Of a DNA stretch of 64,000 nt, positions 1,837 to 5,428 are shown in pieces. The notes below the pieces were generated by a model. The model saw nothing but the letters and a program-made list of their open reading frames with translations, was not told the DNA's origin and made no database searches. The stretch spans positions 3,712,001 through 3,776,000 of the forward strand of contig CBDCJH010000002.1 in assembly GCA_965217775.1 (NCBI GenBank), read 5' to 3'. A program made the position numbers and the translations under genes. Each line of letters starts with the position of its first letter. The stretch's first letter is position 1. The DNA comes from Acidobacteriota bacterium. GTDB lineage: Bacteria; Acidobacteriota; UBA6911; RPQK01; JAJDTT01.

Positions 1837-3261
1837 TCAAGACCGTACGCCGATAGGCAAAAGCTCCACGCCTTCCCCCTCCTCGGGTTTCTTGATGCGA
1901 AACCGCACCGAGGTCACCTCCGATCCATGGGGCCCGAATCGGTTCTTGAAGCCTTCCCGCTGGCCGACCATGAAGATGGAGCCGTCCTCCAGCACGCAGG
2001 CGCTGGGGTAGTAGGACTTGGGATCACACTTGAAGCCGCGCCCCGGCGCCGGTTTCACCCAGGTCTTCCCATTGTCGCGGCTGTAGATCACCTCACCGTT
2101 GTTCGGCACCTTGGGATCGTCGCCGCTGAGTCTGTGGCGGCCCCCAAAGACGACGGCGGTGACTCCGTCGGGCGTCGCCACCACGTCCCCCCGCCGGTAC
2201 AGTTTGGGGCCGAGAAGCTCGCTTCCAAAGTTGGGATCTTCGATGACCGGGTCGGTCAGGAGCAGACGCGGCGGGGACCAGGTCCTTCCGTCGTCGTAGG
2301 ACTGATACCAGGCCGACGTCGGCCGGCAGGGAAAACCGAGGCTGCCGTCCGGCAAGTAGGCAACTGTGCCTTCGTCCATATCGTAGTCATTGCTTCCGAT
2401 CACCGACACGGTCGACCAGGTGCCGCCCTTGTTCTCGGAGCGCATCAGGAGCATGAGCCAACGGGGGTGTTCGCTGGGCCAGCCCTTTCCCCCGGGAATG
2501 GGTGCGGCGGAGGCGAAGAGTTGCAGCGAGCCGTCCCTGCCCTCGAACATGCTGTAGGGAGCATCCATGTCGGCGAGCCCGACGAAGCGTGTCACCTCCT
2601 TCCAGGTGTGGCCACTGTCGTCGCTTCGAAAGATCAGGGTCTTCGATTGCCGGTTGACCGCAATTCGGGCGTACTCGAGGGCATTCATGGGCATCTGGTT
2701 GAAGTAGCCCCAATGGGGTTTCAGCCGGGCTCCCGCAATCATCGTCCCGTCACTCAGTTGCACCACGTCACCGACGTAGTAGGCGCCGGGCACCACCGGA
2801 AACGAGCGGGGCCGGCTCCAGGTCTTCCCCTGGTCCCGGCTGCGGATCCACATCATCCTTCCGCCCTCGGGCGCATCCCAATCCCCGAGCCATTTTCGAT
2901 CCGGCCGTAACAAGCGCTGCCGGGCCTCCGGAGGCATGTCCCAGGGGGTGGGCCAGGAAGCGTGCCAATAGCCGGCCGAGAAGGTCACGAAAAGATCGCC
3001 ATTCTGCAGCCGGCACACCGTCGGCCACCCGCAATAACCGCCGAACCCGCGGAAGGGCTCCGGCGGGTTGACGTCGGGAGAAACGATGATCTTTCGGTAC
3101 TTCTCGAAATCCACCCGGGGCTCGTCGCCCGTAATCAAGGCCATGACAGGTGGAATAGAAGCCGCGGCGGACTTCTTCTTGCCTGCTCCGGCGAGACCGG
3201 TGGTTGCCAATGCGGCTGCTGAAGTGGACAGAACATCCCGGCGGGTCAATTGGACGGCCAT
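1837..3261 (-). CDS. Tat-exported BNR/Asp-box (sialidase-like) beta-propeller protein
   Basis: Start ATG at 3261 after a GAGGAGG RBS; twin-arginine signal (LTRRDVL); repeated Asp-boxes SRDQGKTW, SDDSGHTW, SENKGGTW, SYDDGRTW, SRDNGKTW. Confidence 0.8.
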   Translation of the reverse strand: MAVQLTRRDVLSTSAAALATTGLAGAGKKKSAAASIPPVMALITGDEPRVDFEKYRKIIVSPDVNPPEPFRGFGGYCGWPTVCRLQNGDLFVTFSAGYWHASWPTPWDMPPEARQRLLRPDRKWLGDWDAPEGGRMMWIRSRDQGKTWSRPRSFPVVPGAYYVGDVVQLSDGTMIAGARLKPHWGYFNQMPMNALEYARIAVNRQSKTLIFRSDDSGHTWKEVTRFVGLADMDAPYSMFEGRDGSLQLFASAAPIPGGKGWPSEHPRWLMLLMRSENKGGTWSTVSVIGSNDYDMDEGTVAYLPDGSLGFPCRPTSAWYQSYDDGRTWSPPRLLLTDPVIEDPNFGSELLGPKLYRRGDVVATPDGVTAVVFGGRHRLSGDDPKVPNNGEVIYSRDNGKTWVKPAPGRGFKCDPKSYYPSACVLEDGSIFMVGQREGFKNRFGPHGSEVTSVRFRIKKPEEGEGVELLPIGVRS

Positions 3262-3353
3262 TTCTTCGCCTCCTCGCTGTGTCGAACGGAAACAATAAGG
3301 GCTTATATACTTGACTAGCCAAGACGTCACACAAGTGTTCGACAATTCTCACC

Positions 3354-4535
3354 ATGAAAGCTCGCGCCACTATCCAGTGCAGAGCCAAGCTGTCCAAGGG
3401 CGGAATCCGGCGGTTGGACTGGGTGAGGTCCATCCTGAATCGGCTGTACAACGCTGCACTGGAGGAACGCAGGACGGCCTGGGAGTCCGAGCAGCGCGGC
3501 GTGACCCTGTACGATCAGATGAAGGGGTTGACCTCCCAGAGGAAGGACGATCCGGAGGGGCTCGGGTCCGTGGCGGTCAAGGCGGAGCGTGGGATGTTGA
3601 TACGGTTGGACCGGGCCTTCAAGGCGTTCTTCCGTCGCTGCAAGGCGGGGGAGAAGCCGGGGTATCCTCGGTTCCGGGCCATTGCCAGGATGGAGACCAT
3701 CGACGTCGTCGACCCGAAGGCGACCCTGGTGAAGAAGCGGGCTCGAGGCTACGCCATCCGGCCCAAGGGCTTCCCGACGATCCGGATCTTTCCGTCCCGG
3801 CCGTTGCCGCACGGATGTCCGTTGAAGGTGTTGCGGATCGTCCGCAAGCCGAACCGGGTGTATGTGGACCTGACCTACGAGGTGGAGAAGCAGCCGCTAC
3901 CGAAGTGCGGGTCTTCGGTGGGGATCGACCTGGGAGTCCGCAAACGGGCGGTGCTGTCCACGGGTGAGAGGATCGAACGGAATCGACGGGACTGGGGAGA
4001 GATCCGAAAGCAGCAGCGAAAGGTGTCCCGGTGCCAGCGCGGGTCGAACCGGCGCCGGAAGCGGGTTCGACGGTTGGCGGCGATTCGGTTCCGGGAGGGA
4101 GTCCGAAGCCGGAACGCGTGTCACCGGGCCACGACCCGGATCGTCCGTGAGCACGGACGGATCGCCGTCGAGAAACTGAACATCCAGGGGATGACCACGA
4201 AGGGCCGGAACAAGAAGGGTCTGAATCGGGAGATCCTCACCCAATCCTGGGGACTTCTCCGCAACCAGCTCCAGCACAAGGCAGAGTGGGCCGGTCGGGA
4301 GTTCGTGGAAGTCAACGCGGCATACACGTCGCAGGACTGCCACCGGTGTGGCGCCAGGAACCAACCTGGGAGAAGCGAGACGTATCGCTGCGCTTCCTGC
4401 GGACTCAAAATGGATCGCGACCACAACGCCGCGATCAACATTCTCAGGGCTGGGGTTTCCGCCCTGGGCGCCGGAACGTGGGGCAGTGGCCCGAGCGTGG
4501 CGCCGGAACTGTGTACTGGAAGGCCCGGTGGCTAG
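3354..4535 (+). CDS. tnpB: RNA-guided endonuclease TnpB (IS200/IS605 OrfB family)
   Basis: N-terminal LYNAALEERR...GEKPGYPRF; RuvC-I GIDLG, RuvC-II IAVEKL, zinc finger CHRC...CASC, RuvC-III DRDHNAAINIL; all three catalytic acidic residues present. Confidence 0.95.
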   Translation: MKARATIQCRAKLSKGGIRRLDWVRSILNRLYNAALEERRTAWESEQRGVTLYDQMKGLTSQRKDDPEGLGSVAVKAERGMLIRLDRAFKAFFRRCKAGEKPGYPRFRAIARMETIDVVDPKATLVKKRARGYAIRPKGFPTIRIFPSRPLPHGCPLKVLRIVRKPNRVYVDLTYEVEKQPLPKCGSSVGIDLGVRKRAVLSTGERIERNRRDWGEIRKQQRKVSRCQRGSNRRRKRVRRLAAIRFREGVRSRNACHRATTRIVREHGRIAVEKLNIQGMTTKGRNKKGLNREILTQSWGLLRNQLQHKAEWAGREFVEVNAAYTSQDCHRCGARNQPGRSETYRCASCGLKMDRDHNAAINILRAGVSALGAGTWGSGPSVAPELCTGRPGG

Positions 4536-4552
4536 CCAAGTATATAAGCCCC
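4443..4552 (+). ncRNA. Putative TnpB omegaRNA scaffold overlapping the tnpB 3' end and the right TIR
   Basis: Nested stems just after the NAAINIL codons: GGGC/GCCC (4447-4464); GGCGCC/GGCGCC with ACG/CGT and GGGC/GCCC (4467-4504) followed by GAA; terminal hairpin 4512-4544. The location matches known TnpB omegaRNAs; boundaries are inferred. Confidence 0.6.
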
Positions 4553-4741
4553 AAACAATACGACCGAGCCCGACAAGGTCTCCGGTCCAAGACTTGTCTT
4601 TTATCGCATATCAGGATCCCCGCCTCTATCGGAGCGGTACAGCCAAGGCCTGATGACGGAAACGGAGGTGAGGGTCGGAGCCCGGAAATCACCGATGCAC
4701 CGGGAAGTCAATGTGGATTCGGAGGCGACTCTGGACCGGAT

Positions 4742-5428
4742 TTATCGGGTGGTCTCGGGAGCTTCGTAGATCACGACTGCCATACTTTTCATGCCGGCAT
4801 CGACACCTGCACCTAGCAGCCCGTGGCAAAAGTCGCCACGGCATCCGACCGTCCCTGCATCCCGGCGGACTGCGTTGCGATTCGATCACATACTCCCGGT
4901 ATGCTCCCGAATCGCGCCTTGTCCGGCGGGCGCAGGAACGGTCTCGGTGCTCGCGGGACTTTCACCACGGACTGCTAGTCCGGCGCCAATTGCCATTGCA
5001 ATCCCAGCAAATACCAGCGTGTAAAACACCACACCGGCCCCAGTCAGGTCGCCAGTTCCATTGCCGGCAAAATCGACCAAAGAAACCCCGGCGCCAACTC
5101 CAGCACCGACTGCCGCTCCCATTGCAGCTCCGTTAGCCAGACCATCCTTCGGCTGAACTGAGACTGTCCGGATGGCCTCTTTGGGGATGACCACTCGAAC
5201 GGAACGCGTTTCGATATCGACACCTGAGGCGGACAGACCTTCAAAATTTCCTTCGAGTGGATCCCCATTCTTCAATTCCAACGTGATGCGCGCTCCCAAG
5301 TCCAGATTTGCGACCTTCTCCCAACGTCCCGGAATCACCCCTGCCCGCACCGGCTGCAAGATCAGTCCCGCCAGGATCAATGAGACGCAGTGCATCCGGC
5401 ACGACCGCATCCACTTTCCGTTCATCAT
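4742..5428 (-). pseudogene. Small secreted/membrane glycine-zipper-like protein interrupted near its C-terminus by MITE copy 1
   Basis: ATG 5428 with GAGGAGG RBS, signal-like N-terminus, Gly/Ala-rich hydrophobic C-terminus. The current ORF stops inside the MITE at 4886; removing the MITE restores ...IGAGLGAGVDAGMKSMAVVIYEAPETTR* ending at 4742. Confidence 0.7.
4817..4974. mobile_element. Palindromic MITE family A, copy 1 (158 bp, CTAG TSD)
   Basis: Ends CAGCCCGTGGCAAAAGTC ... GACTTTCACCACGGACTG; CTAG on both sides; near-identical copies at 45889, 53050 and 57747. Confidence 0.9.

Follow-up and report, generated by a model that had tools for sequence, protein, structure and literature searches.

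The window analyzed here is a 64,000-nucleotide stretch of DNA (C2:3712001-3776000 of genome G000) from an Acidobacteriota metagenome-assembled genome (MAG) of two contigs, with a size of 6.43 Mb and 62% GC. It carries a mobile element of approximately 1.25 kb, at positions 3298-4552, in which tnpB is the only family-matched gene between two terminal inverted repeats (TIRs). The element entered its AT-rich target through a DDE-type reaction, with duplication of 8 bp, and its relatives have jumped many times in this genome, in this genus, and in other phyla. Here, we examine how the gene and its predicted obligate mobile element-guided activity (OMEGA) RNA, or omegaRNA, relate to the IS1595 family of insertion sequences (ISs). 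The features of the locus, in window coordinates, are as follows.

3289, + strand: G immediately 5' of the left target-site duplication (TSD), at the position of a target-adjacent motif (TAM); from a flank comparison of 37 insertions
3290-3297, no strand: left TSD copy AAACAATA; one copy, AAACAATT, in the empty site of genome G013
3298-3321, + strand: left TIR, 24 bp; outer 13 bp common with the IS1595-family elements of the genome
3322-3353, + strand: short leader from the left TIR to the tnpB start codon; sequence reading
3354-4535, + strand: tnpB, 393 aa, RuvC D-E-D and zinc finger intact; profiles, alignment, structure matches
4445-4450 / 4461-4466, + strand: predicted omegaRNA hairpin 1, from covariation; its loop GGGGTT (4452-4457) is the predicted pseudoknot 5' strand
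4478-4496, + strand: predicted omegaRNA hairpin 2; 95% of cells paired, compensatory changes in 3 of 5 pairs
4510-4546, + strand: predicted terminal omegaRNA hairpin; 5' arm approximately 4510-4519, 3' arm approximately 4536-4546
4529-4552, - strand: right TIR, 24 bp; sequence reading, repeat search, genome pattern scan
4547-4552, + strand: right TIR tip AGCCCC, predicted pseudoknot 3' strand and last scaffold bases before the guide; covariation
4553-4572, + strand: predicted guide template, comprising the right TSD copy (4553-4560) and the next flank; from the scaffold prediction, with a length of approximately 16-20 nt assumed

The left end reads AAACAATA (3290-3297) followed by the TIR AGGGCTTATATACTTGACTAGCCA (3298-3321), and the right end reads the TIR TGGCTAGCCAAGTATATAAGCCCC (4529-4552) followed by a second, exact copy of AAACAATA (4553-4560). 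Read as a reverse complement, the right TIR matches the left one at 22 of 24 positions. An inverted-repeat search recovered the same pair as 23-nt arms (3299-3321 and 4529-4551, 96% complementary); the next-best inverted repeat within 3100-4800 is 20 nt long at 80%. Across the 6.43-Mb genome, the TIR pattern of the window copy (up to 3 mismatches) occurs in these two places only, with no match for a reversed-pattern control. For the empty-site search, the two flanks of the window copy were compared separately, by BLAST, with the loci fetched from the genus. They abut in G013, a genome of the same genus, at a site (locus L062) that reads ...GTGTCGAACGG-AAACAATT-CGACCGAGCCCGG... and holds a single copy of the 8-mer. 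Because the flanks meet there around one 8-mer, the 8-bp repeat is a true TSD. With its TIRs, its 8-bp TSDs, and its empty site, the element departs from the IS200/IS605 (IS1341-type) pattern.

tnpB ends with a stop codon inside the right TIR and starts after a leader of only 32 nt that follows the left one; a crude promoter scan of this leader found no sigma-70-like site on the + strand. Other open reading frames (ORFs) of at least 50 aa in the element overlap tnpB in other frames, as expected of GC-rich DNA. The product matches the Pfam families OrfB_IS605 (PF01385, 2.4e-17) and Cas12f1-like_TNB (PF07282, 2.9e-25), both above cut-offs, and its residues 31-373 match the structures of ISDra2 TnpB (PDB 8ex9, 8exa, and 8h1j; E 6.5e-30). 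In a 17-sequence alignment, D192, E273, and C349 are invariant, and D354, C329, C332, and C346 are kept in at least 90% of sequences. A preliminary description of this DNA, made from its letters alone, had read the paired TIRs and exact repeat around tnpB, taken the RuvC triad and zinc finger to be intact, and predicted an empty allele. The repeat search and genome scan reproduce the ends, the alignment and ISDra2 structures bear out the catalytic and zinc-binding residues, and the allele in G013 is almost exactly the one predicted.

The window copy is not alone in its genome. BLAST found 12 further full-length copies in G000, at 81-88% nucleotide identity to it, plus fragments. These 12 form the main subfamily, with the left end GGGGATTATATACGTAAGTGCC and the right end, read inward, GGGGCTTATATACCTAAGTGCC; the two TIRs differ at two positions. 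Of the resulting 13 full-length copies, 11 have a perfect 8-bp TSD, each different, one has a 7/8 match, and one has none. Intact tnpB ORFs (391-393 aa) are likewise present in 11 of the 13; one is split by a 165-bp repeat, a putative miniature inverted-repeat transposable element (MITE), at C2:4647527-4647690, and one has a stop codon. The ratio of nonsynonymous to synonymous substitution rates (dN/dS) is 0.21-0.25 between the window copy and ten main-subfamily copies and 0.32 among the latter (45 pairs, 95.2-98.7% identical). The distance from stop codon to element end is 12-17 bp in the G000 copies; in most relatives 29-132 bp separate the end of the TnpB match from the element end, with 269 bp in one truncated copy. 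All 16 tblastn matches to TnpB in G000 fall within this one family. A genome search for Y1_Tnp (PF01797) gave three weak matches only (best 3.3e-9), in frames of 225-316 aa at C2:2.63, 4.67, and 5.64 Mb, none adjoining a tnpB copy. The element thus has no IS605 or IS607 partner close by, although no search was aimed at the serine recombinase of IS607. One main-subfamily copy (C2:1186780-1188023) has an intact ORF and unlike flanks, AATGGATT on one side and AAACATAT on the other, which suggests recombination between two copies after insertion.

Five of the eight other genomes of the genus also carry tnpB elements, of several subfamilies; those with both ends found have GGGG(A/C)TTATA... ends and their own 8-bp TSDs. 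No tnpB-element match was found in six genomes of the sister genus. The window subfamily, recognized by its inner TIR TTGACTAGCCA, is single-copy in G000. A search of the nine genus genomes for window-type TIRs returned the window copy, one copy elsewhere in G009 (TSD ATTGACTC), a 288-bp derivative in G008, and two solo ends in G000 (C2:1550806 and C2:5866526). The 288-bp TIR pair (G008:C344:348-635, locus L174) encloses an interior without TnpB coding capacity and resembles a MITE that arose from the window subfamily by deletion.

A scan of the genome with the terminal 13-mer (up to 2 mismatches) gave 73 matches, including end pairs that do not surround tnpB. These pairs bound autonomous elements. 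Five of them, which we call 'A', measure 1760-1762 bp and include one frameshifted copy; two more have diverged and are 1531 bp and 1627 bp long. Matching 8-bp TSDs flank the five 'A' copies and the 1627-bp element, though not the 1531-bp element. Their 331-334-aa ORF matches Pfam DDE_Tnp_IS1595 (1.8e-38) plus Zn_ribbon_IS1595; in the family summary given in PMC8101967, this domain, an N-terminal zinc ribbon, and 8-bp TSDs define most of the IS1595 family. The 'A' ends (GGGGATTATATACGAAAGTGCCGAAA) nearly match those of the main subfamily (GGGGATTATATACGTAAGTGCCGAGA), with 24 of 26 positions equal at its left end, and the match of the window copy to the autonomous ends is limited to the outer 12-13 bases. 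Two sister genomes, G014 and G011, hold 12 further 'A' copies at 98-99% identity, and G014 carries both 'A' elements and main-subfamily tnpB elements. Judging from these ends, the 1762-bp 'A' IS is the likely helper of the 12-copy main subfamily.

The 'A' element (G000 C2:445385-447146, equal to L143:501-2262, and the four other copies) has approximately 700 bp of extra DNA after its transposase gene. This includes a 110-aa ORF matching the NA-iREase1 and Mrr_cat restriction-endonuclease-like domains (1.4e-7 and 2.3e-4), perhaps a whole or fragmentary passenger gene.

The architecture of the window element is found in Acidobacteriota, Chloroflexota, Binatota, and Pseudomonadota. TnpBs at 36-54% identity, with the same ends and 8-bp TSDs, occur in Bryobacterales/Terriglobia, Caldilineaceae, Binatia, an unclassified gammaproteobacterial MAG, Boseongicola, and Arenicellales. 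Our genome-collection search gave 80 loci; 111 locus rows, duplicates included, have a long TnpB match, 60 of these have both termini, and 49 of the 60 are unique. Among the 49 unique two-ended insertions outside the window, 30 have a perfect TSD and six a 7/8 match. These 36 elements span 1102-1406 bp, too little to accommodate a transposase. A tblastn search with the IS1595 transposase over all fetched tnpB loci, which a divergent transposase could escape, matched at L098 only, as a 110-aa partial hit outside the element.

We then compared the termini with the phylogeny of the proteins. A quick IQ-TREE analysis divided 78 non-redundant TnpBs into groups of 49 and 29 with 100% SH-aLRT support. 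In a loose test that counts one terminus in the right orientation as positive, 44 of 48 tested members of the larger group have at least one IS1595-type terminus, and 32 have both ends. The figures for the smaller group are 2/29 and 0/29, and the wrong-strand controls gave 4/96 and 1/58, respectively. On the strength of the tree split and these counts, the capture of tnpB by IS1595-type ends is old, and the clade appears to be non-autonomous throughout the sampled set. A metagenome scan with the TnpB alignment gave 80 loci. Nearly all of them fall outside the clade, at 31-43% identity; just two resemble the element, L210 with both ends and L215 with one, and the scan added nothing to the flank statistics.

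Two sister-group TnpBs (L114:2884-4139 and L116:2854-4104, from Acidimicrobiales/Acidimicrobiaceae MAGs) lie between a different inverted repeat, GGTAGTGGGTC(A/G)GTT, and L114 also has an 8-bp direct repeat, CCGCACGC. This may be a second case, independent of the first, in which a TIR transposon captured tnpB.

Given the copies, the autonomous IS1595 elements, the empty site, and the tree, the window element is very probably a non-autonomous IS1595-family derivative mobilized in trans, in which tnpB and an omegaRNA replace the transposase gene. The preliminary description had proposed just such a capture, and its expectations of further tnpB copies with the same kind of TIR and different 8-bp TSDs, and of TIR-bounded TnpBs grouping in a tree, agree with what the genus and the supported split contain. 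It also anticipated an autonomous IS1595 with matching TIRs; one with nearly matching ends exists for the main subfamily, and none in the nine genus genomes has the inner TIR of the window copy.

The right ends of the elements share a CCAGAAC..GTAT motif 25-45 nt before the element end, even past the end of the ORF. We predicted RNA structure with RNAalifold and pair counts from 14 diverse elements, aligned over their last 170 nt. Paired cells make up 89.8% of the total, compared to 77.7 +/- 1.4% in shuffled alignments (0/500 reach the observed value) and 35-50% when the structure is slid, and 12 scaffold pairs have changes on both sides. In the terminal hairpin, 95.5% of cells are paired, with both-side changes in 4 of 7 pairs. 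Its 3' arm is formed by the inner and middle portions of the right TIR, and its 5' arm covaries with the inner TIR. Many of its pairs are G-U, so that an RNA of the sense strand is favored. The predicted pseudoknot covaries as well, with GGGGUU/AGCCCC replaced by GGGAAU/AUUCCC in other subfamilies. In a free search for pseudoknot partners over 22 sequences, a sequence's own tail pairs 6/6 in 12/22, compared to 26% for other tails; this result is weaker than the alignment-based count, partly since its search window missed the Caldilineaceae loop. Covariation thus supports a predicted TnpB RNA scaffold in the last approximately 110-170 nt of the element that uses the right TIR itself.

The position of the pseudoknot bears on where the guide would begin. 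In ISDra2, a pseudoknot joins -6..-2 with -102..-106, directly before the guide, and the predicted pseudoknot here joins -6..-1 with -101..-96 (ISDra2 values as given in the relevant part of PMC10097598). Because it is placed as in ISDra2, next to the guide, the predicted guide start is 4553, in the duplicated 8-mer. On this structural model, the guide is probably taken from the flank. The empty site of G013 matches the guide region from 4553, with a G 5' of the match.

We compared the flanks of 37 independent tnpB-element insertions with a TSD of at least 7/8, the window copy included. The base before the left TSD is G in 36/37 and the first TSD base is A in 31/37, whereas on the right neither mirror position is conserved (C in 14/37, T in 13/37). 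The G is also kept in 10 of 13 unique insertions with decayed TSDs. With the transposase setting the orientation, autonomous 'A' insertions show G at -1 in 7/17 and G followed by A (G|A) in 5/17; the difference from tnpB elements at -1 is significant (Fisher p = 7.6e-6). The TSD consensus of the tnpB elements is AWWNNNWW, with A/T at positions 7 and 8 in 37/37 and 30/37, and 'A' insertions have A/T at position 7 in 17/17. Because A/T is frequent at positions 2 and 7 in tnpB elements and autonomous elements alike, we attribute it to transposase preference. The left-flank G, perhaps together with the A, might be a short TAM; from these flank counts we rate that reading as tentative, a little short of an even call.

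Several other explanations must be weighed against the captured, flank-guided element that we favor. The simplest is a one-off nesting, in which a tnpB-only (IS1341-type) element sits inside a MITE and the TIRs and TSD have nothing to do with TnpB. Both tnpB-only elements and nested mobile elements occur often, and the putative MITE that interrupts one tnpB copy in this genome is an example of nesting. The stop codon inside the right TIR and the 32-nt leader speak against nesting, as does an RNA scaffold that pairs and covaries with the TIR; the recurrence of the architecture in 36 further independent insertions from four phyla, together with that covariation, refutes it, and we give it practically no weight. 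A second idea keeps the RNA and changes its target: a fixed guide consisting of the right TIR would direct the nuclease to transposon ends, its own or those of autonomous IS1595 elements, in place of empty sites. The approximately 24 nt that follow the conserved CCAGAAC-GTAT motif are the TIR, and such a guide would match the left end and the 'A'-family ends with few mismatches. Yet the TIR is base-paired in the predicted scaffold, as hairpin 3' arm and pseudoknot strand, with compensatory changes; the pseudoknot has the ISDra2 spacing that puts the guide directly after it (PMC10097598, as above); and the conserved flank G would be left unexplained. We therefore regard a TIR guide as very unlikely. 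We are just as skeptical that TnpB is a decaying passenger or a domesticated TldR-like regulator that no longer acts as a nuclease for the element. Two of 13 copies are broken and the window-type subfamily is single-copy, but the catalytic triad and zinc finger are intact, dN/dS is 0.2-0.3, 11 of 13 ORFs are intact, and the gene stays in a mobile unit with many recent insertions.

Two further alternatives concern the guide start and the flank signal. The guide could come from the flank and begin only after the 8-bp duplication, as in Fanzor1, with the 8-mer as spacer or scaffold and a TAM within the duplication. Fanzor1 and Fanzor2* offer a precedent, with TIRs and TSDs predicted in the scaffold and RNAs that extend approximately 15 nt past the TSD (reported in PMC10711439), and the A/T at TSD positions 7 and 8 could be read in the same way. 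However, an 8-mer as variable as AWWNNNWW allows no fixed scaffold, its A/T positions are shared with the autonomous IS and so derive from the transposase, and the features specific to tnpB elements (G at -1, A at 1) stand at the 5' edge of the duplication. A guide start after the duplication is, in our judgment, unlikely. A transposase effect is the main rival to the TAM reading of the left-flank G: the G|A bias would be unrelated to TnpB and would reflect an orientation-specific transposase preference or shared ancestry of the sites. IS1595 insertions do favor AT-rich 8-mers flanked by G/C, G|A is found on the transposase-proximal side in the 5/17 autonomous insertions noted above, and the two main-subfamily TIRs differ, as noted, at two positions. 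On the other side, the 'A' family has nearly the same ends and far less G at -1 (7/17 compared to 36/37, p = 7.6e-6), the bias persists in subfamilies with like TIRs (L040, L074), and the 37 sites have different flanks in several phyla. We consider a transposase or ancestry effect doubtful, while giving it more weight than any other rival.

How might a captured tnpB serve such an element? Starting from the insertion footprint, the ends, the presence of a helper, and the RNA covariation found in this analysis, we propose a cycle whose remaining parts, namely mobilization by the 'A' helper, the guide start, the TAM, and a retention role, we infer. An IS1595-family transposase from elsewhere in the cell would bind the 24-bp ends and move the element, with tnpB and its RNA riding along. 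A guide would be picked up from each new flank and transcribed from 4553 onward. It would match only the unoccupied site, in which one 8-mer and the right flank are preceded by the left-flank G, which would act as a minimal TAM. Once the site is occupied, ...CCCC stands before that sequence, which would hence be spared. TnpB would cut empty alleles, whether never occupied or arisen by precise loss between the 8-bp repeats, and repair from an element-bearing copy would restore or spread the element. A retention or homing role of this kind has been proposed for IS605 TnpB and is here carried over to a DDE transposon.

More broadly, a deep, multi-phylum TnpB clade may have been a lifelong hitchhiker of IS1595, with a guide RNA fused to the transposon end and a G, then an A, as its TAM; we offer this combination as a conjecture that we lean modestly against. 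If it is true, the right TIR would be at once transposase binding site, terminal stem of the omegaRNA, and pseudoknot strand, and the left TIR, the right TIR, and an RNA loop would co-evolve. The flank signal would be the first natural-genome footprint of TnpB retention or homing shaping the location of a DDE transposon, and the OMEGA strategy would work with TSD-making transposases by way of the single-TSD empty site.

A number of observations weigh against the reading that we prefer. No autonomous IS1595 in the nine genus genomes has the window copy's inner TIR TTGACTAGCCA; IS1595 variants with partly similar ends (TTGACTA...) occur in G007, G009, and G011, and none is a good match. With no matched helper in those nine genomes, the window copy may be immobile now. 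The TAM-like signal is 1-2 bases (G, then A), far shorter than the TAMs of characterized TnpBs. The flank control consists of 17 insertions of one IS family, and the bias could still come from a transposase that acts on asymmetric ends and prefers targets in one orientation. We know of no characterization of the excision of IS1595 elements. The loci were picked by similarity to the query, so that 'clade' denotes a division of the sampled set. For Fanzor1, a TSD within the scaffold and a guide that starts after it have been reported (PMC10711439); with that kind of start here, the G would be too distant from the target for a TAM.

The RNA itself has points on this side as well. An Rfam scan of 3200-4700 at E <=1 found no matching family. 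Sponge metatranscriptome contigs show that related copies are present and cannot show transcription: four runs gave contigs of related copies only, at 90-99% identity, which indicate neither transcript ends nor strand and provide no omegaRNA evidence. One 201-nt contig (X17, record 4) covers 4362-4554 with 5 differences and continues into 8 nt of different flank, so it originates from a related copy at another site.

TnpB in DDE transposons with TIRs is known in outline, including solo copies moved in trans. The main text of Altae-Tran et al. 2023 (PNAS, PMC10691335) describes six DDE-associated TnpB branches, DDE-1 to DDE-6, bounded by inverted terminal repeats. It also describes solo TnpBs that share these ends and whose movement is presumed to rely on a DDE transposase in trans. 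The preliminary description is outdated on this score, both in its premise that bacterial TnpB never sits between TIRs and in its label of an undescribed system. IS630 is the only DDE family named in that main text, and ISL2, IS630, and IS1031 are listed in a 2026 review (PMC13565253). The term 'IS1595' occurs 0 times in the main text of PMC10691335, whose supplements lie outside the comparison, and is absent from the compared passages of PMC13565253. As in the DDE branches described there, the present TnpB is prokaryotic, lies between TIRs, and has its 3' gene end less than 250 bp from the transposon end; unlike in those branches, no sampled clade member has a transposase inside the element (PMC10691335, main text). 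A gene-neighborhood survey could miss a clade that is wholly non-autonomous. Literature searches for TnpB together with IS1595 or its subgroups, or with TIR, TSD, or non-autonomous elements, returned no title or abstract describing the association.

Fanzor was reportedly found in eukaryotic TIR transposons by Bao and Jurka in 2013. The parallels with Fanzor are close. Like Fanzor1 and Fanzor2* as described in Yoon et al. 2023 (PMC10711439), the present element has a TnpB-family nuclease as the sole gene of a non-autonomous TIR/TSD element, and, as predicted for Fanzor1, its TIR would be recoded into a guide-RNA scaffold whose guide reads into the flank. The differences are that the host is bacterial, that the TnpB is close to the ISDra2 type (E 6.5e-30), that the predicted pseudoknot, reported absent from Fanzor1 in that account, is retained, that the TSD is variable and seemingly guide rather than scaffold, and that the partner is IS1595, itself the prokaryotic relative of eukaryotic Merlin according to PMC8101967. 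The element shares with the IS1595 family (Siguier et al. 2009, as summarized in PMC8101967) its 8-bp TSDs, TIRs starting with GG, and AT-rich target, and it also stands close to IS-derived cargo cassettes that lack a transposase. It differs in having no transposase inside and in its cargo, an RNA-guided nuclease whose predicted RNA is interwoven with the right TIR; with transposase available only in trans, it is an IS1595 derivative and not an IS in its own right. From the IS200/IS605 side, including IS1341-type elements and ISDra2 TnpB, come the protein family, the catalytic residues, and the predicted omegaRNA layout with a pseudoknot by the guide. Unlike the IS200/IS605 elements characterized in PMC13565253, which have no TIRs, no TSD, a Y1 TnpA, and subterminal hairpins, it has TIRs and 8-bp TSDs.

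This locus contributes an intact multi-copy family with a probable helper, an empty site, covariation that places the TIR in the scaffold, and a flank signal. Cas12 descends from TnpB, itself a compact genome editor. What TnpB does in nature has been established only for IS605 elements, whose excision is scarless. The rarity of OMEGA systems in prokaryotic DDE transposons has been ascribed to the excision break and to inflexible target recognition (in the corresponding passage of PMC13565253). This locus, part of an active-looking family with 11 intact genes, a probable helper in the same genome, and a predicted RNA scaffold adapted to a DDE end, is a tractable counter-example to that argument and a bacterial counterpart to the capture of Fanzor by TIR transposons. 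The clade is also a source of nucleases of approximately 390 aa that perhaps need a very short TAM, which would be attractive for editing if confirmed.

Finally, we note the surroundings of the insertion. The gene at 1837-3261 (- strand) encodes a BNR/sialidase-like protein with a twin-arginine-type N-terminus. The element sits 36 bp upstream of its ATG (3261-3259) and 23 bp upstream of its GGAGG, and has therefore parted this gene from its upstream region. A 502-aa frame reported by the ORF finder at 1837-3345 is an artefact that runs into the left TIR. On the other side, window positions 4812-4980 hold a copy of the approximately 165-bp repeat, which is found at 92-99% identity in well over 100 places over all nine genus genomes.

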